From: Candidatus Bathyarchaeota archaeon
GTDB lineage: Archaea; Thermoproteota; Bathyarchaeia; Bathyarchaeales; Bathycorpusculaceae
Assembly (NCBI GenBank): GCA_963717465.1
Contig: OY970340.1
Location: forward strand, 2,528,001 to 2,592,000
Direction: 5' to 3'
Length of the DNA: 64,000 nt
Shown in pieces: positions 30,068-53,105 of this stretch (the stretch's first letter is position 1; each line of letters opens with the position of its first letter). The position numbers and the translations under genes are program-made. The notes beneath the pieces are model-generated. The model had not been told where the DNA came from, did no database searches, and worked only from the letters and a program-made list of their open reading frames with translations.

Positions 30068-30818
30068 TTATCCGAATTTGCCGTTAATGTAATTGTATGT
30101 TAACTCGCTTTTAGGATTATTAAAAAGAGTCTTGGTCTCATTGTACTCAACCAGTTCACCTACATACATAAAAGCTGTATAATTGGAAACACGCGCAGCT
30201 TGCTGCAAATTGTGAGTCACAATAATAACTGTGTACTTCCCTTTGAGTTCTCCAACAAGAGATTCAATACGTGATGTCGGCCGGATCCAAAGCACTACAC
30301 GGTTCATCCATCAAAATCACTTCAGGCTCAACTGCCAAGGCGCGCGCAATACAAAGTCGTTGCTGCTGTCCACCAGAAAGAGAAAACGCGCTCTCATTAA
30401 GGCGATCCTTAACTTCATCCCACAATGCGGCTCCCCGAAGGCTTTTCTCTACAGCCTCATTGAGTTTGCCTCCTTTAGCGGTATTATGGATGCGTGGACC
30501 ATAGGCGACATTGTCGAAAATGCTTTTTGGAAAGGGGTTAGGCTTCTGAAATACCATGCCAATCCTACGTCTCAAATCATAAACGTTACTGCCATCATCA
30601 TAGATGTTTTGGCCATCAAAAATTATCTCGCCTGACGTTCGGCAACCAGTGATAAGATCGTTCATTCTATTGATGGAGCGTATAAGGGTGGATTTGCCGC
30701 ATCCTGAGGGACCCATAATCGCCGTTACAGCTTTCTCTTTAACGTCAAAATCTACATCTTTCAAAACGTGATTACTCTTGAACCAAAGGTTGAATTTTTT
30801 TGTTTGAACGTTTCCCAA
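30068..30818 (-). CDS. pstB: Phosphate ABC transporter ATPase PstB, frameshifted near 30280
   Basis: [55 protein letters not shown]; continues in another frame with TSRIE...[12 protein letters not shown]...YINGKFG. Confidence 0.93.
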
Positions 30819-31033
30819 ACTTTTTCTCCCCTGCCATAAAGAGGCTCGGCCGATGTTAGGCACTCAAGGATTGCTTTCTGTGACAAAAAAAGGCTCTCTA
30901 ATGTAAATATTGGTTTCCACAATAGGCGTCATAGAATATAATTTGATATATAATCTCTTTAGACAAGGGTTTTATTACATAATTCAATAGGGCAAATATA
31001 CTTGTCTATCAAGTTTTAAGAGAAGGGCTTGGG

Positions 31034-31240
31034 TTGTGGCAAGATAACCAGGACACTGAAAGACGAAAAACCCAGTTTACAGGCGGCTTGGAAAGGGAGG
31101 AAGGGATATCGTCCAAAATGGACATTGATGACAACGCCAACCTAAGGTTAATTATTGAAAGCATAAGAAAAACAGCTGAATGCGCTGCAGATACCGCCGA
31201 GATAGGGCCTAATTTAACTGTCAATATAATTCTTGTGTGA
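31034..31240 (+). pseudogene. Internally deleted AbrB-PhoU regulator remnant
   Basis: RKTQFTGG joined directly to LRLIIESIRKTAECAADTAE, matching both ends of the PhoU at 52050. Confidence 0.8.
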
Positions 31241-31246
31241 AAAAAA

Positions 31247-31819
31247 ATGGCCGAACAAAAAGTTAATTTTTTTGCCACTTTTTATATTAGGCTAAAAAAT
31301 TTTCTCACTAATAGAAAATTCATCACCGATGTAGTTGTTAGATTGGTCATAACTTTTGGAGTTATACTGATTATCGGAGGACTTTACACACTCTTAATGC
31401 TGACAAACCAAGTTTCTCAATCAAGTTCTGCGATTGATTCAGTCCTAACGGTGATATGGTGGATTCCTGGAATCCCTTTATTCTTGGCCGACGTTTACGA
31501 CACTACCGTTACAACCATCGGGATAATTTCTTTCGTTTTGGGGATTGACCTATTTCTTGTTGGATTAGGGCTTTGGGTAAGACACCCTCTTGCACGTTTG
31601 ACTGCAATAATAATATTTGGTCTTGGTGCCTTTTTTCAACTTGTTGAATTTTTCTATATTGGTTATATGGGTATTCCCAGCTATTCTACTCCGACTATTT
31701 TTGCACTAATTGTGGAAGTGATTTTGCTTTATTTTTTACTTTCCAGATTTGACTCGAAAAATCGTTTAAAAGATGAAAAACTCGCTAATTTAGAGAAAAG
31801 TAAACCCTCATATGCTTAA
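31247..31819 (+). CDS. Four-TM membrane protein
   Basis: Hydrophobic helices; LFLVGLGLWVRHPLAR motif. Confidence 0.7.
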   Translation: MAEQKVNFFATFYIRLKNFLTNRKFITDVVVRLVITFGVILIIGGLYTLLMLTNQVSQSSSAIDSVLTVIWWIPGIPLFLADVYDTTVTTIGIISFVLGIDLFLVGLGLWVRHPLARLTAIIIFGLGAFFQLVEFFYIGYMGIPSYSTPTIFALIVEVILLYFLLSRFDSKNRLKDEKLANLEKSKPSYA

Positions 31820-31839: not shown

Positions 31840-34019
31840 TTAGCTTCTTTGATTATAGTAAGCAAGATAATATTGAACAAATAATTGTAAATCCTCAAAG
31901 TTTAATACGCCATCATGATTCAAATCGCATCTTGGATTTAGGAAACCAGTCTGATAATGAATTACGTAATAATGGACGAAATATTGAAGGTCTGCAAAGT
32001 TTACTTTTCCATCTTGGTTTAAATCGGCTTGGTAGTATACTGTTAAGTTGGAGAAATTTTGGAGTCCGTTGTATGTTGCTGTGACTGCCCAGTTTCCCAT
32101 GTTATCGGAGGTGTAATTGCCACTTGTCCATGAGCCACCAGCTCCAGAAGTTATGCTCCACAAGCACGATGCAGTGGCATCCCAAGAATTGCCATAACTA
32201 TCGATTGCAGTGGTTGTATAAATTTGGCCGCAACCGGCATTTATTGAGGCGGTATCTGGGCTGATGGTGATGCTTTGAGCTGTTGCATGGTTAACGCTTA
32301 AAGAGGTTGTGGATAGTAAATTGTTTAAAATGCCTGTGATTGTCCAGTTCCTGCTTTAGCTGCAGTATATGTGTTGCCTGTCCAGTTGCCGCCAGCCTGA
32401 GGGTCAATATTCCAAGCTGTTGAGGTGGTTACATCCCACGAATTACCATAAGGGTCGTAGGCAGTGGCGTTGAAAAGTTGGCTTTGACCGGCAGTAATTG
32501 ATGAGTTTTGAGGAGATATAGCTATGTTAGAGGCTGATGCATGCATAACGTTAAGCTGTGCAGTGCCTGAGGTGTTGCCTAATGAAGCGGTGATAGCCCA
32601 AACCCCGGCCATGGCCGAAGTATACACGTTTCCTGACCAAGATCCGCCAGCACCAGCACTTGTACTCCAAGAAGTTGAATTAGTCACATCCCATGTGTTC
32701 CCGTAAATGTCTGAGGCAGTTGCTGTAAAAGATATTGAAGAACCAGCAGATATTGAAGTATTGTGTGAAGAAATTGTGACGCTGTAAACGTTAGCATAGC
32801 TTACGGTTAAAGTGGTCGTTCCAATTATACCCGAATAATTACCAGTTACTGTCCAAATGCCAGCTTTCACACATGAGTAAACATTCCCGCTCCATGCACC
32901 GCCAGCTGCTGATGTTATACTCCATGATGTTGAACCTGTGACATCCCAAGTATTCCCATAGAAGTCGGAAGCGGTAGCAGTAAACGTTACCTGAGAGCCT
33001 GCTGCAAAGGTTGGATTAGTTGGGGTAATGGTTAGGTAAGATGGGGTGGAATGTGTTACGGTTAAGGAAGCAGTATCAGAATACCCTAGATAAGTTCCTG
33101 TTACGATCCAAGTTCCCACTTTGGCTGAGGTGTAAACATTATTTGACCAAGAACCGCCAGCATTTGCATCTATTTGCCAGTTTGTCAAATTAGTAACATC
33201 CCAGATATTACCAAAAGAATCTTGAGCAGTTGCTGTGAAAGTTACCGAGTTCCCAGCTGATACAGATGGGGTTTTTGGACTTAATGTTATGCTGATAGCT
33301 GTTGACGGATTAACCGTTAAAGACGCTTGGGCAACAAACGTTCCCTCATACGTTCCCTCGTATATCGCTGTGTAAACTGCTGTAACTGTAAAGGTTCCAG
33401 CCTTTGCGGATGTGAAAGTTGAGCCGGACCAAGTGCCTCCTGAACCGTAACTAACAAACCATTGAGTTGAACTGGAAACATCCCATGAGTTGCCAAAGCT
33501 GTCATCCGCTGTAGCGGTGTACGTTTGCTTAGAGCCAGCAGTGATAGTCGCAGTTTTTGGAGAGATTTGAAGTTGAACAGGTGTGGATGGAGTAACAGTT
33601 ATTTGACTGGATGTCGCTGACATAGATCCATCGGTAACTGTGATATTTTGGGAGCCAGCTGTAACCAGATTGAAACCTGAAAACGTATGCACACCGTTGT
33701 CGCCTGAACTACCAGTTGTGAAGGTATAGGTGCTCGTGGAGACATAGGGTAAGGTTGCTTTTGGATCACTTGATGTGAAATAAACTTTACCTGTGTAGTT
33801 AGTCCAGACCTGCCCGCTAGCATAATAAACCGTAACGGTTATGTCACTGAAACTTTGGCCAGCAGTAACAGAAGTTGGGCAACCGGTTATTGTAAAGTGA
33901 TAAGTTGCAGTAGCTGCCATGACAGTAGCGCCTTGAGGCGCAATTAAAGATTCACCTACGTAAATGGTTGACAACAATATTAAGAATAATAGTACAATAA
34001 CTCGTATAACATTCCTCAT
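31840..34019 (-). CDS. Secreted protein with six Ig-like repeats and a C-terminal dockerin-like module, frameshifted near 32345
   Basis: Signal peptide; ~85-aa repeats I.P....AG...F.ATA.D..GN.WDV....W.....GG.W; DLNQDGKVNFADLQYFV and DLNHDGVLNFEDLQLFV. Confidence 0.8.
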
Positions 34020-34192
34020 GGCAAGCCCTCGCTTTGCTAAGCTTCTTCTCACATTCTCTCTCTTTTCATGAAAGCGGTGACTTGGGTATTTACCGCTTTC
34101 CTACTTAGTATAAGGGGAGTCTAGTATGAGATTATGAGAAAAATAGTCACCACATAGAAATATAAAAAAATAAATAGACTATATTTGCCGAT

Positions 34193-34780: not shown

Positions 34781-34944
34781 TTTATTTTTTCTCCGATGTA
34801 TGTCAAGAGTGTTGAATCAATATTTGATATTTGTCGCTATAGAAAAATGGTATCAAGTAGTTTCGCTTAAACGCTATTTAGATAATAGGTCTAAAAAGCT
34901 TAAAACTAAATAGCTTATATGACTGATTTTAAGACTATGATTCA

Positions 34945-36489
34945 TTAGGGATTGATTAGAAAATTTGCTGCTGACTCAGGCGATAATGGAGCGGAAGAGT
35001 TTGTGAGCAAACAAACATACGCCGTTGCTTCTCCTGGGAATGCCCATAACGGGATAGTGACGGCGGCATCTATAATGGTGAGGTTTCCGCCCAGTTGAGT
35101 TATCGGTATAGTTGAAGAGGCGATAGGTACACTTGCGTTGTCAAATATTGTGATACACAACCCGGTGAACGGCGCAATCATATCATCGTTGTTTATAGTA
35201 AGTTGTATGGACATTGTTTCGCCTACGTTAACACTAGTAGGGATGGTAATATTTTCGACTTCGCTAAGATAAGTAAAAGTGAAGCTTTCGGTATCGCTTA
35301 CGGGTGCTATTTGACCTAGAACTGTAGCTGATGCTGTTATGGACCAATTTCCAAACAAGTTTTCCGTTGGGTTAGGGTCAGGAAGTCTAAAGTTGGTATA
35401 TGCTATGCCTGTTCCATTTGTAACGTTGCTTACAGTAGATATAAGCGAGCCGTTCGGGCATTGTATACTAAAATCCACGAGGGCACCTGGCACGGAAACA
35501 TTCTGGTCAGTAGCCAACCCATAAATTTGAACAAGTTGCAAAGGTCCATACGTATCGGCATCAGTGAAAACTTGGAGATTGAATGATTGAACCACGTTTA
35601 TTATTGCACTCGCACTATCCGCGGTATCATTGGCGGTGATTATCAGTATTATACGAAAGGTGCCTTCAACCGAAGCGTTAAATGTTGTAATTTCGCCGGT
35701 TAAAGATGTAAATGTTGTTCCGTTGAGGTACTCGACACCCCATAAGTAGTCGGTTATGTTGAGGGTTTGATTATTTTCATATCCTGGCTGTGACGAGTTT
35801 GCATTTAATGTTACGGTTGAACCTATCAAGAAAATTGATCCGTCAGCTGGAGAGAACCTGGCTACTGGATTCTGGATTGATGAATTTTGCGAAGGAGACG
35901 ACGAAACAAAAATTGCGTTTGCGTAGGCAAATCCTGTGGATGTTCCAGTTGGATAGATATTTCCGATTGTCGGAGATACCAAATAGAACAATTGACCTGA
36001 GGGACTAATATCGAAAGTAATGTTGCTTTGACCACTGCCGATGACCTGGAAAATAATTTGCCCTAAGACCACGTCGTTATCTGGTTCAATAGTGGCAGAT
36101 GCATTAGCTGTATCCAAGATTGTTTGAGCAAAGTCATATTCTGAACTATTAACTGCAACATCAGTAGATACAAGGTGACTGCCCCAACATGAACCATCTG
36201 CAGTGGAAACAATATCAAGAACTGCAGGATTGTAAATTACGCCGTATGTTGCACCATCGATACCGCCTGAAACAAAACTCGCATTATCCAACCTCACATC
36301 AACAGTAAACTGCGAGCCAATCGCAGCCTGAGGTATATAGGATGTTACAGATGACCCAGCATCACCAGTTGGCACAATACTAAGCACAGGCGTTGTACCA
36401 CTCTCGTCAGCTTTGATTTGATAAGCAAAGAATATAGAGAAGCCTATGATCAGTAGCATGCCTAAGCAAATAACACATTTCCGTTTCAT
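34945..36489 (-). CDS. Secreted cohesin-like protein with a PKD-like domain and the shared C-terminal beta-sandwich pair
   Basis: GSQFTVDVRLDN..GATYGVIYNPAVL...VLGQIIFQVIGSGQSNITFD; NPVARF...TLNA.SS...YLW. Confidence 0.75.
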   Translation of the reverse strand: MKRKCVICLGMLLIIGFSIFFAYQIKADESGTTPVLSIVPTGDAGSSVTSYIPQAAIGSQFTVDVRLDNASFVSGGIDGATYGVIYNPAVLDIVSTADGSCWGSHLVSTDVAVNSSEYDFAQTILDTANASATIEPDNDVVLGQIIFQVIGSGQSNITFDISPSGQLFYLVSPTIGNIYPTGTSTGFAYANAIFVSSSPSQNSSIQNPVARFSPADGSIFLIGSTVTLNANSSQPGYENNQTLNITDYLWGVEYLNGTTFTSLTGEITTFNASVEGTFRIILIITANDTADSASAIINVVQSFNLQVFTDADTYGPLQLVQIYGLATDQNVSVPGALVDFSIQCPNGSLISTVSNVTNGTGIAYTNFRLPDPNPTENLFGNWSITASATVLGQIAPVSDTESFTFTYLSEVENITIPTSVNVGETMSIQLTINNDDMIAPFTGLCITIFDNASVPIASSTIPITQLGGNLTIIDAAVTIPLWAFPGEATAYVCLLTNSSAPLSPESAANFLINP

Positions 36490-36653
36490 TTAGGGAACCC
36501 CCTCTGACGTTCTTTTTATTAAATTGGTTACCGATGCGTGGAGTGCGTGGCTTGCTGTTTTTGAGTGTAAGAAATTGATAAGCCTAACATCCCAAGTAAA
36601 AGTGTTGCCTAGGAATTCTTTTTTAGACATGTTTTGTCTTCCGTTTTGATATT

Positions 36654-37994
36654 TTAAGCTGTAATTTGGAAGTTTGCTGTTTGTTGTGGGCAAACAGGAA
36701 CGCCTCCAGTAAGGGGATTTTGTGTTAGGACGTTAACGTATATTGTTGCTGTTCCTGTAAAAGCCCATGTTGGAATGGATATCTGGGTTGTAAATGTATT
36801 TCCTGTTATGCAGTTGGAGTTTATCAGGACGGTGCTTATGGGGACGCTTGCATTGTCATATACGGTAATAGAGACAATCGACCAAGTTGAGTTTTCGAGG
36901 TTTGGTAGAGTTATACTGACAGACATTGTAGACCCTCTGGCAATGGTCGCTGGTAAGGTGATGCCGATTTGAGTGGTTACAACTGTATTATACGTGAAAT
37001 AGACTGTATCGCTTGCGACGACTTGAGCAACTTGCACTGAGGCAAGAACTGACCATATTCCAAAATTGTTAGTGCCGTTATCAGGTGTTCTATACGATTG
37101 ATATGCGATTCCTGATGAGTTTGTTAATGATGATGTGATGGATATAATTGTTCCATTCGGATCACAAACCGTGAATACAACCTGCTCGGGATTTGTTACG
37201 GGTTTACCGTTCTCTGTTACAAGAGCATACAATTGTATTAATTCACCTGGAACGAAGCCGGGGCTTGTCGCGTTGGGTCCTATTCCGCCTTTATTGGTAA
37301 ATACATCAATGGCGACAGATGGACTTGGCGAAGGAGACGGACTCGGAGAAGGAGAAGGGCTTGCAGATGGACTTGGCGAAGGAGACGGACTCGGAGAAGG
37401 AGAAGCGTTGTAAATTGCGTTTGCATAGATAAACCCTGAAGGTGCCCCAGTTGGATAGATGTTTCCAGTTGTCGGAGATGACAAATAGAACAATTGACCT
37501 GAGGGACTAATATCGAAAGTAATGTTGCTTTGACCACTGCCGATGACCTGGAAAATAATTTGCCCTAAGACCACGTCGTTATCTGGTTCAATAGTGGCAG
37601 ATGCATTAGCTGTATTCAGGATCGATTGAGCAAAGTCATATTCTGAACTATTAACTGCAACATCAGTAGATACAAGGTGACTGCCCCAACATGAACCGTC
37701 AGCAGTGGAAACAATATCAAGAACTGCAGGATTGTAAATTACGCCGTATGTTGCACCATCGATACCGCCTGAAACAAAACTCGCATTATCCAACCTCACA
37801 TCAACAGTAAACTGCGAGCCAATCGCAGCCTGAGGTATATAGGATGTTACAGATGACCCAGCATCACCAGTTGGCACAATACTAAGCACAGGCGTCGTGC
37901 CACTTTCGTCAGCCGCAATCAGATGAATAAAAGAGAACACAGAAAAAATTATAACTACTATTACAGCTAAAGCAAAGATGATTTTCCGTTTCAT
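36654..37994 (-). CDS. Secreted cohesin-like protein with a Pro/Ser linker and the shared C-terminal pair
   Basis: Cohesin-like module nearly identical to that of 34945; (SP)n linker. Confidence 0.75.
   Translation of the reverse strand: MKRKIIFALAVIVVIIFSVFSFIHLIAADESGTTPVLSIVPTGDAGSSVTSYIPQAAIGSQFTVDVRLDNASFVSGGIDGATYGVIYNPAVLDIVSTADGSCWGSHLVSTDVAVNSSEYDFAQSILNTANASATIEPDNDVVLGQIIFQVIGSGQSNITFDISPSGQLFYLSSPTTGNIYPTGAPSGFIYANAIYNASPSPSPSPSPSPSASPSPSPSPSPSPSPSVAIDVFTNKGGIGPNATSPGFVPGELIQLYALVTENGKPVTNPEQVVFTVCDPNGTIISITSSLTNSSGIAYQSYRTPDNGTNNFGIWSVLASVQVAQVVASDTVYFTYNTVVTTQIGITLPATIARGSTMSVSITLPNLENSTWSIVSITVYDNASVPISTVLINSNCITGNTFTTQISIPTWAFTGTATIYVNVLTQNPLTGGVPVCPQQTANFQITA
37316..37405. 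repeat. 48-bp-period tandem duplication encoding the SP linker
   Basis: 42-bp stretch at 37316-37357 repeated at 37364-37405. Confidence 0.9.
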
Positions 37995-38274
37995 TCAAGA
38001 GTCTCCTGTTTGACAAAGGAGGCTTTGCCGAAGGTGAATTTTACCAGACATAACCAATTTATGGTATCTATTGGCAGATTGAAGCCTCTCCCTTTGGTTG
38101 GAGAGTAATTGGCTGTTAACTATTTTACCTTAGCCAAATAGAATATGTAGACAATATAGTTTAATTTTAAACTCGTTTTCATGTTGTTTCGTGGAGTAGC
38201 TAGTAAGCTATTTTTTGATAGGCAATAGTTTGAGTTTTAGGTTGTTTATTGATTTAGCCCATCTTAAATTGAGT

Positions 38275-41831: not shown

Positions 41832-42911
41832 TTATGAGCTCCAATATTGTAGGTAGTATTTTACGAAGAGCTGTAGGTCTGCAAAGTTTATTTTTCCATC
41901 GTTGTTGAAATCGATTGCCGCAGTGTAGGCTCCGTTTTGGTAATAATTGATGTAATCACGCACGAAAATTTGCAGATCTGCAAAGTTTACGATTCCGTCG
42001 CCGTTGAGGTCGCCAAATTGGGCAACTTGGAAGGTTGTGGTTTGCGACCCTTGGGTTCCTACGTAGGTTCCTGATGAGTAAGCTGCATATGGATAGTTTG
42101 CTGTTGAGTAAACGGTGTAGTTTCCTAGGACGCAGTTACCTTGGTTGGGAAGTCTGAAGGTAAAGTTGTAGTAATGGTCAACTCCGTTTAGGCTGTAGGT
42201 AGTTGGGGCAGTGCCTGGGAATGGTGTGCCGCCTGTTATCGTGAATTGGAAGGTTTTTTCCATGGCCAATGGGACTCCGCCGTTGCTTGGCCAGTCTGAG
42301 TATACGTTTACGTAAGCGTATACTGTTCCGTAATGCGCCCAGGAATCGATGAGGAAGTTTGTTTGAATGAATGAGGATGAATATGCGCCTACGTTTAGTG
42401 TGGCGTAAGATAGCGCGATTGGTACCCCGTTGCTGTCGAACATGTTTACCGTTACGAGCATTGGTTGGATTGTGCCTTCGTTGTTTATTACTTGGACGTA
42501 GTATGATGGGGTTTCTTGGTTGGAAGCTGTTGGCATTGGTATGCTTGTGATTTGGTTACCTCCAGCATTGCATAAGTAGGATGCGTTTATGTCTGCTGGT
42601 ATGTTGTATGGTATGACGTTACCTGTGCTGATAGTTCTTACTACAAGGGTGTTTCCGTTAGGGTCTTGAATTTGTACTCCTGCTAAACCGTCGTTTGGAT
42701 AAAAGTTGGTGCCTGCGTTGTAGTTCATGCTTCCGATGAATGTTACGATAGAGTATCTATCGTACAGACTGCTGTCATTGTAAGCCGTTATAGTGCTTGC
42801 TGTGCTAGCCGTTAAAGTTAAAGTTAAAGTAGGGGTTTGTGCTCTTACCAACGTTACTGCCATAGGGGCTATTATTAAGCATAATAAAATGGAAATAAGT
42901 TCTTTTCTCAT
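41832..42911 (-). CDS. Secreted beta-rich protein with C-terminal dockerin-like module
   Basis: GDLNGDGIVNFADLQIFV and DFNNDGKINFADLQLFV. Confidence 0.82.
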   Translation of the reverse strand: MRKELISILLCLIIAPMAVTLVRAQTPTLTLTLTASTASTITAYNDSSLYDRYSIVTFIGSMNYNAGTNFYPNDGLAGVQIQDPNGNTLVVRTISTGNVIPYNIPADINASYLCNAGGNQITSIPMPTASNQETPSYYVQVINNEGTIQPMLVTVNMFDSNGVPIALSYATLNVGAYSSSFIQTNFLIDSWAHYGTVYAYVNVYSDWPSNGGVPLAMEKTFQFTITGGTPFPGTAPTTYSLNGVDHYYNFTFRLPNQGNCVLGNYTVYSTANYPYAAYSSGTYVGTQGSQTTTFQVAQFGDLNGDGIVNFADLQIFVRDYINYYQNGAYTAAIDFNNDGKINFADLQLFVKYYLQYWSS

Positions 42912-43305: not shown

Positions 43306-45546
43306 TTAGCTTGGTGTGTAACCGATTGTGAAGGTTCCATCGGATTCTGGGCAGTATGGTAAAGCTCCGTTAGCTGAGTTTGCTGGATTAGCGTTGAATA
43401 TGTTCACGTGAACTGTTGCAGTTCCACCGAATGCATAGATTGGGATTGGCAGAGTGATTGATCCAGAAGATACTGTGCTGCTTGCGATTCCGCTAACGCC
43501 TGCGACTGTTGAGCTTTCTTCACCTGAGTAGACTGGTACGCCGTTAGCATCTGTGACTGTGTAGGTTATGTAGTAGAGTTGGGTGCTTTGGGAGATTGTT
43601 GTGATTGGAATGCTTAAGGTTGCATGGTCTCTACCTCTGGCAACTAATGAACTAACTGATACTTGACCTAAGGTAAGAGTGTAGCCGTATTGGAAGTTGA
43701 ACGAACTGCTTACAATGACCTGAGCGACATCGACGGTTGCGGTAACTTCGTAGGTTCCGAATGACATTACTCCACTGCCGTCGTTTGGTAGACGGTATTG
43801 TACAACTGCGATACCAGAGCCATTTGTATATTCAACGAATGTAGCGATAACGTCAGTTGAATTGTAGATGGTGAATGTTACTAGTTTGTCTGTTACTTCT
43901 CCGCCGTTGAATTCAACGAATGCTGCGAGATTCATTATTTGCTGTGGTGCATAAGAATCAACTGTTGTAGTGCTGTTGAAAATTCCCTGGCCTGTTGGAG
44001 ATTTGTATGGAAACGCTGTTGTGGTTGCATTGTTAACTATGTAGAGGTTTATTTGTGCGCCGGCAGAGGTTGGTGAGATTATGCCTGGTGCGATTGTTAG
44101 TGTGGCTGTGTTGGTGTTCACGTAGCTTGAATCAGTTGTTGTTGCGGTTGAAACTGTCAAGGATACAACTATGTTTCCGTTAACCACTGAGGGTGCATTG
44201 AATGAAATGCTACTTCCTGTTCCTGTTGCGATTGTTGTTCCACCGTTTGTTACTGTCCATGAGTATCCGGTGATTGGTACAGTGGGGTTAACTGGGTTCG
44301 CTAATGGGTCATATCCTGGGACTGAGGATAGTGCATTCATCGTGAATGGTTGACCTGCTATGTATGTGGAGCTTCCTTCATTGGTGATGACTGCTGTTGG
44401 GGCTTGTGCTGCTGGTGCTGTGCTTCCGATGTACATGAAGTTGTTTAATGCATTAACGGGTTCACTAATCTCATTGTTGTTGACTAGGGTTGGGATGCCT
44501 GGTGACAGAGTGATTGCACTATTGGCGTAGTTGATTACTTCGAAGGTTAAGGTGCACATTACGCCTGCTGTGTTTGTGGCTGTTGTGTTAGAGAGGTATA
44601 TGTCGCTAATTCCTTGTTGTACTGTACCTGCAATGTTGTCAATGAAGCCGGGTACGAATAAGGTTGAGCTGCCGTTATAGAGGCCTGGTGCAGCGTTCAT
44701 GTAGGATCCTTCAGTTATGGTTTCGAGCTGAAGGACTGCTGGATTCCAGCTGACGCCGATGTTCCATGCCCAAACTGGTTCGTTTAATTCATTGTTCATG
44801 TATAAGTCAACGCTGAAAGTGTTGTTTATCGGATTTGTTCCACTTGGGAATTGGTATGATGCTTGGTTTGTTGTGCCGCCCGTGCCGCTGAGGACTGCGC
44901 TAATTGTGGTTATCTGTAGGTTGTAGATCGCGTTTGCATAGGCAAATCCTGAAGATGTCCCGGTTGGATAAAGGTTTGTGGATGTTGCTGTTGTTGTGGT
45001 TCCAGTGGTTGCCACTAAGTAGAACGGATTGTTACCGGTAGTATCGAAAGTAATGTTGCTTTGACCGCTGGCAATGACTTGGAATGTGATTTGGCCTAAG
45101 ACTACAGCGTTACCTGGTGAAATTGTGGCAGATGCATTAGATGTATTCGCGATTGTTTGAGCAAAGTCATATTCATTACTTCCAGTTGCAACGTCTGCAG
45201 ATACTAGTTTGCTAGTCCAGCATGAGCCGTCGTTACTAGACACAAATTGAAGGACTGCTGGATTGTAAATTATTCCGTATGTTGCTCCACTGATGCCGCC
45301 TGAAATATAGCTTGCATTATCGAGTCTGATGTCAACGGTAAACTGCGAGCCGATTGCTGATTGTGGTATGTACGATGTTACCGATGACCCAGCAGCGCCA
45401 GTTGGCACAATGCTGAGTACTGGTATTGTGCCGCTTTCGTTTTGAGCTTTGACTGCGGGCACAATAGCCATTAGCATTGACATGACCATAAAAAGGGCCA
45501 AGACCAAAGCTAATATGGATTTGGTTTTAAACATTTTTAGTTTCAT
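43306..45546 (-). CDS. Scaffoldin-like secreted protein with two cohesin-like modules, a PKD-like domain and the shared C-terminal pair
   Basis: First module GSQFTVDIRLDN...; second module TFSVDLYMNN...WAWNIGVSWNPAVLQLETITEG...VMCTLTFEV. Confidence 0.78.
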   Translation of the reverse strand: MKLKMFKTKSILALVLALFMVMSMLMAIVPAVKAQNESGTIPVLSIVPTGAAGSSVTSYIPQSAIGSQFTVDIRLDNASYISGGISGATYGIIYNPAVLQFVSSNDGSCWTSKLVSADVATGSNEYDFAQTIANTSNASATISPGNAVVLGQITFQVIASGQSNITFDTTGNNPFYLVATTGTTTTATSTNLYPTGTSSGFAYANAIYNLQITTISAVLSGTGGTTNQASYQFPSGTNPINNTFSVDLYMNNELNEPVWAWNIGVSWNPAVLQLETITEGSYMNAAPGLYNGSSTLFVPGFIDNIAGTVQQGISDIYLSNTTATNTAGVMCTLTFEVINYANSAITLSPGIPTLVNNNEISEPVNALNNFMYIGSTAPAAQAPTAVITNEGSSTYIAGQPFTMNALSSVPGYDPLANPVNPTVPITGYSWTVTNGGTTIATGTGSSISFNAPSVVNGNIVVSLTVSTATTTDSSYVNTNTATLTIAPGIISPTSAGAQINLYIVNNATTTAFPYKSPTGQGIFNSTTTVDSYAPQQIMNLAAFVEFNGGEVTDKLVTFTIYNSTDVIATFVEYTNGSGIAVVQYRLPNDGSGVMSFGTYEVTATVDVAQVIVSSSFNFQYGYTLTLGQVSVSSLVARGRDHATLSIPITTISQSTQLYYITYTVTDANGVPVYSGEESSTVAGVSGIASSTVSSGSITLPIPIYAFGGTATVHVNIFNANPANSANGALPYCPESDGTFTIGYTPS

Positions 45547-45589
45547 TGTTTATTTCTCTCTCCTTTCATGATTTGAAAAAAGTAGGGGA

Positions 45590-47161
45590 TTATTGTCCCA
45601 CTACCAAGGGGTTTACGTAGAGTGGGTTGTAGACTATGTAGTAATTCACGTAGGTTTTCACGAATCCTTGTAGGTCTGCAAAGTTTACTTTGCCGTCAGC
45701 GTTAAAGTCACAGTATGGGTTGTATGCTCCTTTAGTGTAGTATGCGATATAGTTGGCTACGAAGTATTGAAGGTCAGCAAAGTTCACTTTACCGTCAGGA
45801 ATAGCCTGAGTCTGAGTTGACAGAAGACCCTGAGATGGACCATAGGTGTTCAAGTTGGAGTCAATCGGTAGTTGACCTGCCATGTCACAGCGATCCAGCG
45901 GGATATAGCCTTGATCAGCAACAAAGTTGCTTGCACCTGAACCAACTGCAGTTGCCGTAGGATTTGCACCTCCAGTTGTCGTGTTATCAGCCATCATGTA
46001 AGCTATCCAAACACCGGTCACTAAGCTTTGAGGATTGCTTGTAACTGGTACATTTGGAAGGTCTTCCCATAGCCATCTCCATGCAAAGTACGGATCAGTT
46101 GCAGCGTAGCCTTTAATGCCTGAGTAAGCCCAGATAACGTTTGCTTGACTGCATACAGTGTAAGGACTCCAAACGGGTGCTACTGTCCATTGACCAACTG
46201 TGCCAGACGGCCCGTAATAGTGTATCATAGTGCTTCCAGAGCTTCCGTCGCTACCACTTCCGGTTGGCTGTTGAGTGTTGAAGGCAATGTTTGCTGGAAT
46301 AACTTGACCATAGGTTTGTAAGTAGCCTAAGGATAAGAAGCCTACAGAGCCTGAAGTAGTGTCAACTGCTTGCCATTCTTGATAGTTTGTCTGTTCATAA
46401 GTGTAAGTTGCCATGTTTTCTGAACCATCAGCAGTTCCACTTGTCTTGTGAACAAAGGTAAAGCCGTTTGGTGAGGCAAAGTATGTGTTGAAGCAGTCCA
46501 TAGTTCCACTGGTTGGGTCTCTAACTATGCGGGTGATTGGCTCAGTTAATTCAGCTGATGTCAAGCCTGCGGTTGAGATGCTTTGGTTAGTCAAGAAGTC
46601 ACCCCATGTATTGAAGTAACCTGGAGCAACGTTGCCCTGACCGCCTATGGTTGTATTACTCTGGACATTGTTTGCGAATGGTGTAGTGTCTGAGAAGAGC
46701 AAAGCAATTTGGTAAGTAGTGAAATTCGTTGGGAGCCAAGACATGTCTGGACTAAAAATCGGAACAACACTGTCAACACCGACAGCATAGATTTGCAAGT
46801 TGATCAGAGCAGAATTTTTCCACTCGGCAGAACTGCTTGCTGGAGGCTTTGACATTTCGCCAATATCTGCTGTTCCAGCGGCTAGTGCCGGCATGGCAGT
46901 TCCACTACCCTGCTGGGCTATGTTTATTGTACTAATGGCATAACCACCAGTAACAGATGAGCTCAAACTGGCCCAATAACTGCCAAAGCTGTTTGATTCT
47001 TCAACTGCAATTGGTCCAACTGTGCTTGAACCAACTATCGTCAGCGTATTTGCTTGGTATAAATTGCCACTTGTTGATGCGTTAGCCATTGCGCTTGCTA
47101 CAGAAAATGCTAAGATTGCTACCACTAATGTAGATAAAATTATTTTTTGGTTTAAATTCAA
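45590..47161 (-). CDS. pstS: Phosphate-binding protein PstS fused to a C-terminal dockerin-like module
   Basis: LTIVGSSTV, QGSG.....A.GTADIG.MS, VGVD, RDPTSGT...F, VGFLSLGY; C-terminal PDGKVNFADLQYFV and DFNADGKVNFADLQGFV; start TTG 47161 after AAAGGAG. Confidence 0.85.
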   Translation of the reverse strand: MNLNQKIILSTLVVAILAFSVASAMANASTSGNLYQANTLTIVGSSTVGPIAVEESNSFGSYWASLSSSVTGGYAISTINIAQQGSGTAMPALAAGTADIGEMSKPPASSSAEWKNSALINLQIYAVGVDSVVPIFSPDMSWLPTNFTTYQIALLFSDTTPFANNVQSNTTIGGQGNVAPGYFNTWGDFLTNQSISTAGLTSAELTEPITRIVRDPTSGTMDCFNTYFASPNGFTFVHKTSGTADGSENMATYTYEQTNYQEWQAVDTTSGSVGFLSLGYLQTYGQVIPANIAFNTQQPTGSGSDGSSGSTMIHYYGPSGTVGQWTVAPVWSPYTVCSQANVIWAYSGIKGYAATDPYFAWRWLWEDLPNVPVTSNPQSLVTGVWIAYMMADNTTTGGANPTATAVGSGASNFVADQGYIPLDRCDMAGQLPIDSNLNTYGPSQGLLSTQTQAIPDGKVNFADLQYFVANYIAYYTKGAYNPYCDFNADGKVNFADLQGFVKTYVNYYIVYNPLYVNPLVVGQ

Positions 47162-47269
47162 TTTTAAACTTCTCCTTTCTCTCTTTAAACAATTGAACGA
47201 TTGCTCGTTCAAGCATCAATTAAAGGCAAAAAGAATATCTTTCTTGCCGACGTAGTTTATATTTAACAA

Positions 47270-47408: not shown

Positions 47409-48284
47409 ATGGACTATAAAAGATTAAGAGAAAATCTAATCAGACACGGCTTATTTATCTGCGCTGTTTCTTCAATCGTAATAGTGTTCACCATCGTAGC
47501 CCTCATTTTGAATTACGGATACCCAGATTTTTCCCAATGGTTTGCCACCGGGTTCTATGCGTCAAGCTGGAATTCATACATTTGGCCCTTCATATGGGGT
47601 TCATTATACGTCTCCTTAGGAGGGACAGCCTTGGGCCTTGTAATAGGTATACCTTGCGCAATTTACATGGCGGAATTTGCAAATATACGCGTAAGAAACA
47701 TTTTGAAGCCATCTTTGGAGGTTTTAAACGGCTTCCCTTCAATCATAATAGGAATCATAGGCCTTACTCTTCTAGTAGACCAACCAGAGCTACCTCACCA
47801 ACTTCAAGGTCAAGGAACCATCCTTTTCGCATGGATAATTCTGGGAATAATGGCAATACCATTAATCGCCAGCCTCGCAGAGGATGCTATAAGATCTGTT
47901 CCTTATGAACTAAAAGAAGCCTCCCTTGGATTAGGCGCCACACGCTGGCAAACAGTAACAAACGTTTTGGTGCCTGACGCAATGTCCGGCATTTTAACGG
48001 CAACTTTGTTAGCATTTGGCAGTGGAATAGGCGAAACCATTGCCGTCTATTACGTTGTCGGACAACAAACAGGTAGCGCTCCAGCCTTTCTTTTTAATCC
48101 AATAACACGAAGCAACACGCTCACCGTTTTAATGTATATGAGCAAAGGAGACCAGGGGTTAGTGCCAGGAAACCCGGGAACAAATCTAGTTTTTGCAATA
48201 GCCATTATAGTATTAATCATAACAGCCGCAATAAACATTATCATAAGAAGGTTATCTTCCCGTAATAAAAAATCAGGCGGATAA
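47409..48284 (+). CDS. pstC: Phosphate ABC transporter permease PstC
   Basis: AIYMAEFA, LKPSLEVLNGFPSIIIG, EASLGLGATRWQT, GETIAV. Confidence 0.92.
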   Translation: MDYKRLRENLIRHGLFICAVSSIVIVFTIVALILNYGYPDFSQWFATGFYASSWNSYIWPFIWGSLYVSLGGTALGLVIGIPCAIYMAEFANIRVRNILKPSLEVLNGFPSIIIGIIGLTLLVDQPELPHQLQGQGTILFAWIILGIMAIPLIASLAEDAIRSVPYELKEASLGLGATRWQTVTNVLVPDAMSGILTATLLAFGSGIGETIAVYYVVGQQTGSAPAFLFNPITRSNTLTVLMYMSKGDQGLVPGNPGTNLVFAIAIIVLIITAAINIIIRRLSSRNKKSGG

Positions 48285-48311: not shown

Positions 48312-49673
48312 TTGAAACTACAACTTAGAAAAACGATAACAAGTACAATCAAATACTTCAAAAAAAAGGAAAGAGCAAGCTTGCTATCGGGGAGCCTTCT
48401 ATTTATTTCGGGCGTTATCGCTATAGTCCCAGGAATACTCCACCTTTACAGCAATGTCCTAACTCAACCCATAAGCCTAATACAATTTGACACATCGGTT
48501 ACCGAAACAGCAATCTCATTGCTCTTAATACTTCCAAGTCTAGTTCTTTTTTGCATAGCATACATGCTTTGGGAAAATCATTCCTTAGGCTGGAAACTAT
48601 CTACAGGAACCGCTGTGCTGACTGCAGTATTAGCCTTTGCCGGGTATGTGCCTCTTGAATTTGCACTATCAATATCAGCCCTAAGTGCTATTGCAGCAAT
48701 AATTGAATTTCGAAATAAGAATAAAATGAAAGATTCACCGATTGTAATTGAAAAGTTGGCAATGTTCGGACTTAAACTTTCTGGGCTCTTCTGCATGGTT
48801 CTCTTAGTAGGGATAATTTTTTATATAGTCATCCGAGGTTCACCTGTTTTATCCGTCGAGTTCGTAACTGGCAGCAATTGGGTTTGGAGCAATGGCTTTG
48901 AATTCGTGGCAGGTACGACAAGTTTAGGAGGAGGAATAAGAGACTCTATAATTGGCACATTTCTGTTTGTTGCTGTAAGCGAAGTCATAGCTATTCCACT
49001 GGGCGTTGGAGCAGCCATTTACCTATCTGAGTACTCCAAACAAAATAGGATCGTTAATGTTATTCGTTTTTTCATTGAGATACTTGCAGGGGTGCCCTCC
49101 ATAATTATTGGATTGGTTGGGGTCGTCATCTTCGCAACGGAATTAAAATGGGCTTATACTTTGCTTGGAGGCGGAATAGCATTAGCAATGATGATTTTGC
49201 CATTTAACATTCGAGTTACGGAAGAAGCCTTGAAGTCAGTCCCGTCATCTTTCAGAGAAGCCTCTTTTGCCCTTGGAGCGACACAATGGCAAACCGTAAG
49301 AAGGGCAGTGCTTTTCGCAGCGTTACCAGGAATAATAACGGGTATTTTGCTAGGAGTAGGAGGAGTCATGGGAGAAACAATGATTTTAGTGCTTATCGGC
49401 TCTGAAACAAGTGCAAACTTCGTAGGCGCAGCAACTTCGATATCGTATTTGGCAAACATCGAAAGATTTTTCTTATCGCCATGTCCAGCCCTAACCATAT
49501 TTATAAACAACGTCTATAACGTAAGCACCAATACTCGACTTACCAACCAAACATTTCAGTTGGGGTCCTTGGCTTTTGCTGGCGCAACCGTCCTAATCGC
49601 GTTATATCTAGCCATCTGCATTATTGCAATGGTAGCAAGAAACTACTTAAACAAGAAAATAAAAGGGCAATAA
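48312..49673 (+). CDS. pstA: Phosphate ABC transporter permease PstA with an N-terminal membrane extension
   Basis: PLGVGAAIYLSEY, LAGVPSIIIGL, REASFALGATQWQT, GET; about 145 extra N-terminal residues. Confidence 0.92.
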   Translation: MKLQLRKTITSTIKYFKKKERASLLSGSLLFISGVIAIVPGILHLYSNVLTQPISLIQFDTSVTETAISLLLILPSLVLFCIAYMLWENHSLGWKLSTGTAVLTAVLAFAGYVPLEFALSISALSAIAAIIEFRNKNKMKDSPIVIEKLAMFGLKLSGLFCMVLLVGIIFYIVIRGSPVLSVEFVTGSNWVWSNGFEFVAGTTSLGGGIRDSIIGTFLFVAVSEVIAIPLGVGAAIYLSEYSKQNRIVNVIRFFIEILAGVPSIIIGLVGVVIFATELKWAYTLLGGGIALAMMILPFNIRVTEEALKSVPSSFREASFALGATQWQTVRRAVLFAALPGIITGILLGVGGVMGETMILVLIGSETSANFVGAATSISYLANIERFFLSPCPALTIFINNVYNVSTNTRLTNQTFQLGSLAFAGATVLIALYLAICIIAMVARNYLNKKIKGQ

Positions 49674-49693: not shown

Positions 49694-51070
49694 ATGAAAA
49701 AACTGTCAACAAACAAAAAAATTCTCAACATCCTATTAATTCTACTTCTCAGCCCATTCTTAACTCAAATAGTCCAAACAACTCACGCCCAAACCATAAA
49801 CCAAAACAATTGGGCAATAACTTTACAAGCCCAAAAAGCTGGACAAAACTCACCCAGCAACGTATTTGCCCCTTTTGACCAAATTCAACTGACCACAAAT
49901 GTGACATACAACAATGCCCCGCAACCAGACGTTTTAGTAACCTTCCAAGTCCAAGGTCCCTTTGGCTCGATTGATTTAATTAATATTACAAGAATCCAAA
50001 TGACAGACTCAAACGGCCAAGCAGGATTCTCATTCCGTTTACCAGACGAAAGCGAAAACCAATCCTTACTTGCAGGCACCTGGCAAGCCTCTGCTACAAT
50101 ACAAACAACCAACAATACATTGCAGCAAACCACAACGTTTACCACTCAATGGCCCATGCAAATAACATCAATGAACATTGCGACGGCACAGGGCCAAACA
50201 GTCTTTGCTCCAGGCAGTCCAGTCACAGTCCAACTGGCAATTAACAACACAGGGCAAGCCCAACCCGTAAACATAACACTCACTATGCAAGATGCAACAG
50301 GAAACATACTAGACCAAACCGAACTTCAAAATACTCAAATCGAAGACCAAACCAGTCTAACCCAAGTTCAAGGCACCATACAAATTCCAGACAACATAAC
50401 TTCAGGCGAAATAGCAGTTAACGCAGCGATATACTACGGAAACTATCAAAACACAGACATACCAATAGCTGCAAGCCAAACCGCCTACTTTGCAATCGGT
50501 GGCAGCGTAACCACACCAACTACAACTTCAACTCAAAACGCCATAAGCCTTTTCTCATGGCTTCTCATTTTCACAGGACTCGCCACATTCACGGCACTAA
50601 CACTTTTTCTTAGAAGAAAACATCTACCTAAAATAGGCGCAAAAACACCGTCTCCCATGCCGAGCTCAATCATAATAACTCCGTCAATAGGAGCAACCTT
50701 AGAGCAACCTTTGCAAACAACACCCGAAGGAGCCAAAACTAGTGAACCAGCATCGATACTAAGTCCGCTCCAGCAAGCTCTAAGATCCCAAGTACAGACT
50801 CAATTAAACCAAATCTCAGAAAGCGCAAACAGAATCCAAGCCTTGAAAGAAGAACTTGATTTAGAGAAAGAGAATTTATCCAAAGACTTGAGCCTACTCA
50901 GAAAAACAGTTGAAGAACAGCAAAAAATAGTAAAGAGCTACTTCGACGAAGTAACCTCAGAAATTGAAAAAATGGAAGACATCTTAAAAGATAAAGAAGA
51001 AAAAACAAAGAACAAAAATAAGACTAATTCAAACGGAAAAAGAAGTGAAACAAACAGCAATAATAAATGA
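49694..51070 (+). CDS. Single-pass protein: shared extracellular beta-sandwich pair, TM, cytoplasmic Pro-rich linker and coiled coil
   Basis: Signal peptide; FAPFDQIQL...VTF.V..P...TDSNG.A.F.FRLP; TM followed by RRK; heptad-rich E/K tail. Confidence 0.75.
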   Translation: MKKLSTNKKILNILLILLLSPFLTQIVQTTHAQTINQNNWAITLQAQKAGQNSPSNVFAPFDQIQLTTNVTYNNAPQPDVLVTFQVQGPFGSIDLINITRIQMTDSNGQAGFSFRLPDESENQSLLAGTWQASATIQTTNNTLQQTTTFTTQWPMQITSMNIATAQGQTVFAPGSPVTVQLAINNTGQAQPVNITLTMQDATGNILDQTELQNTQIEDQTSLTQVQGTIQIPDNITSGEIAVNAAIYYGNYQNTDIPIAASQTAYFAIGGSVTTPTTTSTQNAISLFSWLLIFTGLATFTALTLFLRRKHLPKIGAKTPSPMPSSIIITPSIGATLEQPLQTTPEGAKTSEPASILSPLQQALRSQVQTQLNQISESANRIQALKEELDLEKENLSKDLSLLRKTVEEQQKIVKSYFDEVTSEIEKMEDILKDKEEKTKNKNKTNSNGKRSETNSNNK

Positions 51071-51250
51071 ATTCCCTTATAAAACTGATTTTGCAGTCAA
51101 CGCAATTAATTCAGATGCATTTTCGGCCAATAAGGGATAGCAACAAACAAGGAATATTGAATTCTTCTATATAGATTATGTGAAATATTATGGAAAAGAT
51201 AATCAGCAGACGCCAAAAACATCATTTGAACATTCAAGGGAGGGGAGAAG

Positions 51251-51829
51251 GTGAAAGAAACCCACGAAGGAAAATCCCACAAGAAATTACTTGCAATAAT
51301 TTTAGCGCTTGCAATTGTTACAATCACAATTATAAGCCTAATCGTTGTAATCCTCGCTGAACCAAAGTTAGCAACAGACGTACAATATCTATCTCCAACA
51401 AGTTATCCAGTGGGATCAACTGTAAGTACTGTGCTGGTTGTTTATGACCCGGGAGCGGACAATTCAGGAAAAAGCGTAGCGAGCCAAATAGCAAGTAACC
51501 TTCAGGCTCAAGGATACTATGTTGACTTGGCAGGCATCGACAGCTCAGTGGCAAAAGGCAACCTCGCCCAATTTACAGTCATAGTAGTTGGAGGCCCATT
51601 AGATAACAACGGGATGGCATCAAGTAAAGTCCAATCATACCTAAGAACCTTGGCTCCAGCAAATGGAACGAAAGTAGGCGTTTTTGGAGTTGGCAATTAC
51701 ATAGTGTTTAACAACAAGATAGCACCATTACCAGGCGGCAGCACTTTAGCAATTAAAGAAATACACGAGATAGATTTAAGCCAAGATACTACCCAAAGCG
51801 CTGAATTTATTACTCAACTGCTCAGCTAA
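51251..51829 (+). CDS. Membrane-anchored flavodoxin-like protein
   Basis: N-terminal TM; VLVVYDPG....KSVASQIA, IVVGGP, VGVFG. Confidence 0.7.
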   Translation: MKETHEGKSHKKLLAIILALAIVTITIISLIVVILAEPKLATDVQYLSPTSYPVGSTVSTVLVVYDPGADNSGKSVASQIASNLQAQGYYVDLAGIDSSVAKGNLAQFTVIVVGGPLDNNGMASSKVQSYLRTLAPANGTKVGVFGVGNYIVFNNKIAPLPGGSTLAIKEIHEIDLSQDTTQSAEFITQLLS

Positions 51830-52049
51830 TAAGTGCAAAAAATATTTTAACACCGAAAAGTTACCCATAGGGTTACAGGCGATAACAGGTTTGGCATCAA
51901 GGCATTGATACCTCCAAGTTCCTATCTGAAGAGTAAGAACCTTCATCTAAAACGTGTTCTACCATATCGCAATAGTATATATAACTTAACGTAAACTATA
52001 TAGAGAACATATTTATCAACGGCGAACCTTCGAGATAAACCAAAACTAA

Positions 52050-53105
52050 ATGGTATTTATATTGCAGCCCTCAAAAGTAAGCGAAGAATTAAGGAAGATT
52101 CAATTCACCGGCGGGTCAACATACATCATTTCATTACCAAAAAGATGGATAGAACAGAATCAACTGCAGCGAGGAAGCATGATCCGCCTAAGAGAAGAAG
52201 ACGGCGGCACCTTATCAATCGAACCTAACAGTGCAAGAATTCAAGATGAACAAAATGAAGCTTTTATCAAAATATCAGCTAAAGATTCCTCAGATCTAAT
52301 CATTCGAAAAATAATTTCCGCCTATCTAGTGGGCTTTAGCATAATTCATTTAAAAGCTGAAAGTCAAAAGCAAATTTCGTCAAAACAAAGATATGAAATT
52401 AAGAATTTTTCAAGACGCATGCTAGTTGGAACAGAAATTGTAACTGATACAGCTCAAGAGCTTACTATGCAAGTGCTCCTAAGTTATCCAGAACTCTCCG
52501 TTCAAAGCGCCTTGAATCGAATGAGTATAATAACAGCATCCATGCACAGAGATGCCATGACTGCGCTTAAATGTCTTGATTATCAGCAAGCCAAAGAAGT
52601 AATAATAACCGATAATGAAGTTGACCGATTCAGTCTCTACGTTGTAAGACAGCTTAAGACCGCAATTCAAAACCCAAGAATCATAAAAGAAATAGGTTTA
52701 CAAAACGCAAGAGACTGCTTAGGATACCGTTTAGTAGTTAAATCAGTTGAAAGAGCAGCAGACCACGCATCAAACATTGCAGAAAACATTCTAGCTTTGC
52801 AAAAGCCTCCAGAAAAAGACCTAGCTGAAAAACTTGAAAAAATGAGTACCATTGCAATTTCAATGTTTGAAACGGCCATAGAAGCACTATTCAGACAGGA
52901 TTACAACCTCGCAGAAAGCATCATTGAAAAAATCAAAGACGTTGAAAACATAGAACGTGACGCAGTTATTTTATCACATAAAATAGAAAGTGAACAATTA
53001 GTCTATCTTAGGCTGGCAATCGAAAGCATCCGCAGAACAGCCGAATATGCAAGCGACATCGCCGAATTTGTCCTAAACCTAACAATTAAATCAATTCTAA
53101 ATTAA
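52050..53105 (+). CDS. phoU: Archaeal phosphate uptake regulator (AbrB/SpoVT N-terminal domain plus PhoU repeats)
   Basis: RKIQFTGGSTYIISLPKRW; DNEVDRF; VERAADHASNIA; IRRTAEYASDIAE. Confidence 0.92.
   Translation: MVFILQPSKVSEELRKIQFTGGSTYIISLPKRWIEQNQLQRGSMIRLREEDGGTLSIEPNSARIQDEQNEAFIKISAKDSSDLIIRKIISAYLVGFSIIHLKAESQKQISSKQRYEIKNFSRRMLVGTEIVTDTAQELTMQVLLSYPELSVQSALNRMSIITASMHRDAMTALKCLDYQQAKEVIITDNEVDRFSLYVVRQLKTAIQNPRIIKEIGLQNARDCLGYRLVVKSVERAADHASNIAENILALQKPPEKDLAEKLEKMSTIAISMFETAIEALFRQDYNLAESIIEKIKDVENIERDAVILSHKIESEQLVYLRLAIESIRRTAEYASDIAEFVLNLTIKSILN

Follow-up and report, generated by a model that had tools for sequence, protein, structure and literature searches.

In the clostridial cellulosomes (C. 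thermocellum CipA/SdbA, A. cellulolyticus ScaB) the recognition between cohesins and dockerins is known to be species-specific. For the archaeal pairs we know of no job assigned since they were first noticed, and that of Archaeoglobus fulgidus is, to our knowledge, a minimal pair with no known cargo. Archaeal cohesin-dockerin pairs have been shown to bind, as cited in PMC9012536, and Timmers et al. 2017 (PMC5244752) note cohesin and dockerin domains, stating that their function is unknown. The closest described case is that of the anaerobic methanotrophic (ANME) archaea in which, according to the available passages of PMC9012536, dockerins are found on ATP-binding cassette (ABC) substrate-binding proteins (NikA/OppA, TroA), together with multi-cohesin scaffoldin-like proteins. 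Precisely, in S4 Data of that paper the ANME-2a protein HOHHFJHI_01811 is a TIGR02136 PstS with a type I dockerin. Here we analysed a 64,000 nt-long stretch (the window) of the genome of a Candidatus Bathyarchaeota archaeon (contig OY970340.1, positions 2,528,001 to 2,592,000), a single contig of 3.05 Mb called G000 in our comparisons, in which a cluster of secreted cohesin and dockerin proteins lies inside a phosphate-uptake (pst) locus. The locus is real and conserved, and it is probably phosphate-regulated. Genes are named by their first coordinate in the window.

As in the ANME archaea, we have here a putative non-cellulosomal archaeal display, in which an ABC binding protein has the dockerin and scaffolds have the cohesins. 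Unlike those of ANME, the genes form a compact cluster, conserved in Bathyarchaeia and interleaved with pstSCAB and phoU, with a candidate phosphate motif, at most two cohesins per chain and a common MG2-IgC module; the available passages of PMC9012536 discuss neither the PstS case nor a phosphate linkage. The original prediction stated that no such system was described, and this was overstated, since dockerin-bearing ABC binding proteins of ANME, PstS included, are published. The literature that we searched, which did not cover subscription journals, gave no paper describing this locus in Bathyarchaeia. The principle has precedents in other archaea, and what is new here appears, from the sequence, to be its phosphate-controlled variant.

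With the clostridial cellulosomes the locus shares the cohesin fold, the duplicated loop-helix dockerin, the membrane-side anchoring cohesins, the adaptors and, in two relatives (G399 and G411), a second orthogonal dockerin type. It differs from them in having no glycoside hydrolase, no recognised cellulose-binding module and no long cohesin arrays, its cargo being a transport binding protein and immunoglobulin (Ig)-type proteins. The cellulosome-like scaffold proposed for this DNA was retained as to the anchoring cohesins, the cohesin fold and the dockerins, but no dockerin-bearing polysaccharide-degrading enzyme was found and, with no more than two cohesins on a chain, one of each type, multivalency would require oligomerisation; in agreement with that proposal, neither Pfam (ten proteins) nor NCBIfam (eight of the ten) gave a glycoside hydrolase or other catalytic domain. 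In short, the system would work like a cellulosome anchor and is not a cellulosome. The A. fulgidus cohesin (PDB 2XDH) has the same fold (Z 13.2; profile E 8e-4), and differs in that here a ten-gene cluster with transporter-linked cargo is found. As regards the canonical PstSCAB-PhoU systems (TIGR02136 and TIGR00975 PstS types), pstC, pstA, pstB, phoU and the phosphate-site motifs of PstS are common to both, whereas here PstS is strongly diverged and has a dockerin for the N-terminal anchor, PstA is extended, and the system is a second one in the genome.

The reading that we favour, and that we hold to be rather likely, is a phosphate-regulated surface tethering system, in which the dockerin holds an accessory PstS on the cell near PstCAB. 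Under phosphate limitation the accessory PstS would be made and exported by a cleavable signal peptide, with no membrane anchor. Its dockerin would plug into the genome-specific cohesin type, both on the membrane anchors 38275 and 40529 and on the unanchored scaffolds 34945, 36654 and 43306, and PstS would thereby be kept on the cell, close to its own PstCAB permease. The three Ig-type dockerin proteins would use the same cohesin sockets, and the whole cluster would be induced with the pst and ppk genes by a common promoter motif. The unanchored scaffolds may be held on the cell through MG2-IgC association with 41832 or 49694, an idea that leads to the mesh reading given below.

The first evidence comes from the modules. 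Seven cohesins in six proteins had been predicted, and both a six-frame Pfam search and a profile built from the locus find seven. In the six-frame search four of the seven were above the PF00963 cut-off; in the Pfam scan of proteins three of the six were matched, none of them above the cut-off. When the locus-built profile was run against solved structures, it matched the scaffoldin ScaB at 1e-13. The structure model covers one cohesin of the seven, the first one of 43306 (predicted local distance difference test, pLDDT, 77), and on this module the expected cohesin fold was found: the top 20 fold matches were all cohesins (Z 15.2-9.7), the best one with a root-mean-square deviation of 2.4 over 135 residues. 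The predicted complex of this cohesin with the PstS dockerin scored 0.07 (mark 0.32), which weighs neither way.

As for the four duplicated dockerin modules, those of 41832, 34193 and 31840 hold as predicted, while in PstS the first calcium loop is degenerate. Three of the four were above the PF00404 cut-off in the protein scan and PstS, with 18.9 bits, was below it; the six-frame search gave the PstS dockerin 23.2 bits, above the Pfam cut-off. The best solved match of the dockerin profile was the dockerin 2y3n_B (2e-9), followed by EF-hand proteins. All four open reading frames (ORFs) of the genome with a strict dockerin motif, and seven of its eight cohesin matches, are inside the cluster, which therefore is not due to chance; no dockerin gene was found outside the cluster in this genome. 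The cohesin that Pfam scores highest in this genome is encoded by a lone gene distant from the cluster (G000:C1:1183394-1184116, +), together with a transmembrane (TM) helix.

Cohesins are of two types. A C-terminal membrane anchor is present on three cohesin proteins (38275, 39239, 40529) and absent from the other three (34945, 36654, 43306). These last three have a two-domain MG2-IgC module in common with the TM protein 49694 and, in part, with the dockerin protein 41832; 49694 belongs to the system, even though it is located beyond the ten genes of the original prediction.

That PstS is one of the dockerin proteins was confirmed. It aligns with solved PstS structures (4jwo, 4h1x, 4gd5), and the motifs GSST, GSG and R..SGT, whose residues we take to contact phosphate, are all present. 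In the protein collection 77 of 79 PstS-domain homologues have a dockerin, and the three motifs are intact in 67 of the 79, the misses being mostly truncated proteins. Fourteen dockerin-PstS form one clade (Shimodaira-Hasegawa-like approximate likelihood ratio test, SH-aLRT, 99), and their signal peptides have ends of the Ala-x-Ala type, as judged by eye without a signal-peptide predictor. We also considered the non-dockerin PstS of the same family: none of the seven is accompanied by a gene for a cohesin or a dockerin within the 7-19 kb examined, and the N-terminal hydrophobic segment is retained in six, the start of the seventh being truncated. The best reading of these sequences is an anchor trade-off, in which the dockerin would take the place of the PstS membrane anchor. 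The permease differs too, as the PstA extension (48312-48770, +) is found in 20 of the 22 PstA of the loci described below, the other two being truncated frames, whereas PstA of operons with anchored PstS does not have it (277 aa vs about 450 aa here). This extension might couple the permease to the anchor. Its homology to the DUF7144-like protein of the locus was considered and rejected (HHalign probability 0.9%). At other sites G000 encodes a canonical pst operon, one more canonical PstS and a transporter of the PiT type, so that the Pst system of the cluster is supplementary. Two paralogues of PstS-dockerin, one in G004 (L035:4878-7388, -) and the protein P0078, are fused to two downstream cohesins; the G004 copy, in which the phosphate-site motifs are degenerate, could thus chain on itself.

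The second line of evidence is conservation. We read the loci of 22 genomes from four genera, which were picked for matching and not at random, and in all of them the pst linkage expected by the original prediction was kept, with the gene order, at different chromosomal sites. The recurrent order is pstS-dockerin, scaffold, adaptor, core anchor, more cohesin genes, the DUF7144-like gene, phoU and a divergent pstB, with pstC, pstA and the gene for MG2-IgC with a TM helix divergent from pstS. Often next to these, in relatives, there are a ppk1-like gene and more genes that, from sequence patterns and recall, we take to be of polyphosphate type. A membrane-anchored cohesin with TM tail is beside PstS-dockerin in 21 of the 22 loci, and in the other one (G504) the contig ends. 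The smallest loci, those of G399 and G411, consist of PstS-dockerin, an adaptor that joins a cohesin to another type of dockerin, and either one membrane cohesin or two. We searched 120 genomes of the genus with two profiles: that of PstS-dockerin found 24 genomes, and that of MG2-IgC found the same 24 and, in addition, G005, thus 25. These profiles were built in part from the same genomes, which are incomplete and, as kin, not independent. Canonical PstS is found in 97 of the 120 genomes. Inside the loci of G016 (L037:16268-17479) and G504 (L102:11252-12565) we also observed genes for PIG-V-like mannosyltransferases, which perhaps glycosylate surface proteins.

Third, cohesins and dockerins are homogenised within genomes. 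In a quick tree of 100 cohesins, five of the seven of the cluster form a genome-specific clade (SH-aLRT 100), and like clades are found in other genomes or sister groups. The five are 50-95% identical among themselves vs 29-39% to the orthologous positions of G020, and for MG2-IgC of the same proteins the relation is reversed (29-39% among paralogues vs 48-57% among orthologues). Likewise, PstS and adaptor dockerins have 45% identity within genomes and 33% between genomes (9 genomes, exact permutation p 5.5e-6). For four of ten PstS dockerins the best match was the cognate adaptor, for seven it was among the first two, and in G255 it ranked tenth. Unrelated dockerin proteins of one genome have genome-specific residue patterns in common. 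A binding pair with species-specific recognition would be expected to show such homogenisation, as far as sequences can suggest it.

The last line of evidence is a candidate phosphate-regulon motif. The exact 8-mer ATAGTCTA was discarded as a regulon box, with 19 non-coding sites vs 45 expected, and a weight matrix was used because this 8-mer is not enriched genome-wide. The motif has 16 bases, roughly [CG][TA]AAATAGA[CT]TATATA, and was learned from 20 promoters (pstB, phoU, ppk1 and canonical pstS), with scaffold-gene promoters absent from the training set. We considered a region as positive if it scored above the 95th percentile of this genome. Of 63 scaffold intergenic regions 24-25 were positive, as compared with a mean of 1.9 and a maximum of 6 in shuffles, and of 3.1 and 10 with a permuted matrix; in the cluster here five of seven intergenic regions were (0.24 expected, 1000 shuffles). 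Other regions gave 12 of 85, and inspection showed several of these to belong to phosphate or cluster genes; cassettes without pst genes gave none of 13. When G000 was excluded from the training, the top 5% of 1289 regions contained 4, 4 and 3 of the 8 cluster regions for three motif widths, and ppk1, phoU and pstB still ranked high. In eight further genomes, the motif was in 18 of 46 scaffold regions (2.8 in shuffles), in 8 of 10 phosphate promoters and in 4 of 36 others. From these promoter sequences, the cluster is probably phosphate-regulated and co-induced with the pst and ppk genes through the motif, for which we infer AbrB-PhoU (52050) as the candidate regulator. In an archaeon no meaning can be attached to a sigma-70 scan. 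The search of sequencing runs listed no RNA run and one DNA run (share 0.13), which bears on neither expression nor habitat. No phosphate-regulon motif was found described for this archaeal group in the literature searched.

Several points weigh against tethering under phosphate control. The PstS dockerin is without the first calcium loop and, by our own pattern, 56 of 77 dockerins of PstS homologues have no canonical loop, 21 have one and none has two. PstS gives 46.1 bits on TIGR02136 vs a cut-off of 206.6, and three of the four dockerin proteins here are of Ig type, PstS being the only phosphate protein. The motif, being AT-rich, could overlap core promoter elements, and at the promoter of pstS itself it gives a low signal (6-7 of 14 promoters, and 1 of 9 in the eight further genomes). 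Homogenisation could arise by gene conversion alone, and the co-occurrence and permutation figures overstate the case because relatives are not independent. In G510 there is a second PstS-dockerin copy (G510:C1 near 531,600), for which the 20 kb examined gave no cohesin gene. Since the minimal loci of G399 and G411 suffice with three or four genes, tethering leaves the other scaffold genes unexplained. Finally, pstB is frameshifted here; yet breaks are found also in 12 of 35 other conserved genes of the assembly.

Among the other explanations, the one that survives best is a coat or adhesive mesh made in phosphate starvation, that is a cross-linked Ig-type layer joined by cohesin-dockerin links and by MG2-IgC self-association, with PstS as one passenger, in many copies and possibly off the membrane. 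We judge it unlikely, though less so than the remaining ones. In its favour, MG2-IgC is common to three unanchored cohesin proteins, a dockerin protein and a TM protein, the scaffold genes bear their own motif sites, and the same three protein classes recur in cassettes without pst genes. Moreover, the dockerin cargo of relatives consists of Ig repeats, InlB-type repeats, beta-propellers and beta-helices, and no phosphatase, phytase or nuclease was found among 46 neighbouring proteins of relatives, a chosen subset that is mostly dockerin cargo. The module itself argues the other way. It folds as two generic Ig-like sandwiches with no sign of self-association, and it is wholly missing from G399 and G411. 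It is missing also from 95 of the 120 genomes of the genus, because of which the MG2-IgC proteins are not the main S-layer of the genus. Fold searches with it gave generic Ig-like matches only, with no archaeal S-layer protein standing out; the top Foldseek row was V. cholerae RbmA (TM-score about 0.33), its sequence search of solved structures was weak, and Atlas look-ups returned unnamed clusters. A Bathyarchaeia S-layer protein is named in an S-layer preprint. A bolder proposal, which we regard as more doubtful still, is that MG2-IgC is a second, orthogonal self-association module. Scaffolds, adaptor and TM nucleator would then build a branched extracellular mesh, present in starvation only and holding many PstS, a phosphate-concentrating, species-keyed inducible organelle under an undescribed phosphate-regulon box.

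We consider it improbable that the locus is a co-inherited but uncoupled island, in which an old surface cassette landed in the pst locus and PstS gained its dockerin by domain shuffling, with no common regulation. The cohesin-dockerin cassette is indeed older than its phosphate use: a sample of 251 genomes of the class gave MG2-IgC matches in 34, and in G217, G128, G059, G042, G165 and G005 the cassette has no pst genes and adjoins a ligase-like gene or transporters of other kinds. Canonical PstS is found in 21 of the 24 genomes with the system. For these reasons, and since one of four dockerin proteins is phosphate-type, the claim of the original prediction that the scaffold is dedicated to phosphate capture was too strong. 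Against mere co-inheritance, gene order and linkage persist across 22 genomes, which belong to four genera and have the locus at different chromosomal sites, the dockerin is kept on nearly all the PstS homologues, and the motif is confined to pst-linked cassettes. As to the other cassettes, in G217 a large neighbour protein has a weak family-5 binding-protein match, and in G005 (L045:8190-15109) the neighbours of the cassette are a Peripla_BP_2 binding protein and proteins with prenyltransferase repeats, one of which bears a dockerin; this may be a version for cobalamin or iron. Hardly credible at all is that the dockerin-like tails no longer bind cohesins and stick to the membrane or S-layer as calcium-independent aromatic helices, since, even though these helices are rich in Phe, Tyr and Trp and the calcium loops are decayed, most of all in PstS, the genome-specific residue patterns on unrelated dockerin proteins, the parallel homogenisation of one cohesin type and the gathering of the genome's dockerins with seven of its eight cohesins speak against it.

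Coming to the locus as a whole, the region 31840-47161 has 11 minus-strand ORFs, two of which (32325-34019 and 31840-32355) are one gene split by a frameshift near 32346. The net count is ten genes, every one with an N-terminal hydrophobic segment, so that the ten consecutive secreted minus-strand proteins predicted are there, one gene being frameshifted. The predicted flanks (pstB and a phoU remnant on one side; pstC, pstA and phoU on the other) were found, with the differences that pstB is frameshifted and that three genes had gone unmentioned: a DUF7144-like gene between the phoU remnant and the cluster, which has one copy in the genome and is a conserved member of the locus, and, between pstA and phoU, a scaffold-module membrane protein and a flavodoxin-like protein. 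The features are collected in the table.

Table. Features of the pst-linked cohesin-dockerin locus (positions in the window)
Feature	Position	Strand	Basis
pstB, phosphate ABC ATPase, frame broken near 30278	30068..30818	-	TIGR00972 292 bits on 5' part; 80-87% identity to G020 pstB in two frames
Best candidate phosphate-regulon motif site, between pstB and phoU remnant	30947..30962	-	Top score of 1289 intergenic regions (within training set); rank 9-14 with G000 left out
AbrB-PhoU remnant, first residues fused in frame to last ~55 residues	31034..31240	+	Translation and tblastn; intact phoU here in relatives
DUF7144-like small membrane protein	31247..31819	+	PF23636 E 2e-4, below cut-off; 21 homologues among fetched loci
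Secreted Ig-like repeat protein, C-terminal dockerin, frameshifted	31840..34019	-	Repeats, dockerin; runs on across break vs 1344-aa G016 orthologue
Secreted Big_3 Ig domain and dockerin, 195 aa	34193..34780	-	PF16640 39 bits; PF00404 32 bits
Unanchored scaffold: cohesin (homogenised type), PKD-like, MG2-IgC	34945..36489	-	Profile matches
Unanchored scaffold: cohesin (homogenised type), Ser/Pro linker, MG2-IgC	36654..37994	-	95% DNA identity between its cohesin and the 34945 one
Short membrane anchor: cohesin (homogenised type), C-terminal TM helix	38275..38991	-	Profile matches
Membrane anchor: second cohesin type, spacer domain, Pro/Thr linker, TM helix	39239..40396	-	Orthologues end in PEF motif
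Core membrane anchor: cohesin (homogenised type), PKD, PKD, TM helix, WLRKK tail	40529..41824	-	Orthologue with TM tail in 21/22 loci
Candidate adaptor: truncated MG2, IgC, further domain, dockerin	41832..42911	-	PF00404 35 bits; IgC match
Largest scaffold, no anchor: cohesin (homogenised type), cohesin (second type), PKD-like, MG2-IgC	43306..45546	-	Profiles, model
PstS-like phosphate-binding protein, cleavable-type signal peptide, C-terminal dockerin	45590..47161	-	PF12849 30.9 bits (cut-off 27); TIGR02136 46.1 bits, below cut-off; solved PstS matches
Inverted repeat right before pstS ribosome-binding site	47193..47212	-	18/19 loci; no Rfam match
pstC permease, divergent from pstS	47409..48284	+	TIGR02138 193.9 bits (cut-off 196.45)
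pstA permease, extra ~150-aa hydrophobic N-terminal extension	48312..49673	+	TIGR00974 213.8 bits
MG2-IgC, TM helix, predicted charged cytoplasmic tail	49694..51070	+	Orthologue after pstA in most loci
Membrane-anchored flavodoxin-like protein	51251..51829	+	Weak flavodoxin matches; upstream motif score 11.7
Intact AbrB-PhoU, candidate reader of motif	52050..53105	+	PF01895 and PF04014; motif site upstream
Five cluster intergenic regions above the genome's 95th motif percentile	34781-34944, 37995-38274, 38992-39238, 40397-40528, 42912-43305		Motif scan

The inverted repeat before pstS, GAACG-N4-10-CGTTC, has a nearly invariant stem and a variable loop, and it could be either an RNA hairpin or a DNA operator; the fold of the pstS leader was no better than shuffles (z -1.68), and no Rfam family was found within 28000-56000. 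The phoU remnant occupies the ancestral position of phoU and has lost ~290 codons by an in-frame internal deletion. Its intact counterpart at 52050 belongs with another set of homologues and, by sequence grouping, the two together suggest a replacement. Frame breaks or stops are found in 13 of 36 conserved loci of the assembly, pstB included, as an upper bound; hence the frameshifts in pstB and in 31840-34019 may be assembly errors, decay of the locus was set aside as their explanation, and pseudogene calls in G000 require read support. Adjoining the locus, at 54274-55500 (-), we observed a gene for a secreted repeat-rich protein with a Ser/Thr linker and a C-terminal TM helix, with no Pfam match over the cut-off. 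Elsewhere in the genome (G000:C1:2243488-2257146 and 2932290-2935310), the Ig-like repeat of the repeat-dockerin gene recurs in large secreted-type proteins that bear no dockerin.

The locus offers a compact testable case of an archaeal cohesin-dockerin system, with a defined cargo (PstS), defined membrane sockets and natural minimal versions of 3-4 genes in G399 and G411; the genome-specific recognition residues and the candidate phosphate-regulon motif make it testable too. If the tethering reading is true, dockerins would be a third way, besides lipid and N-terminal helix anchors, by which a cell that lacks an outer membrane retains its ABC binding proteins, and roughly 15 kb of surface-protein genes would be spent on it in about a fifth of the genus.

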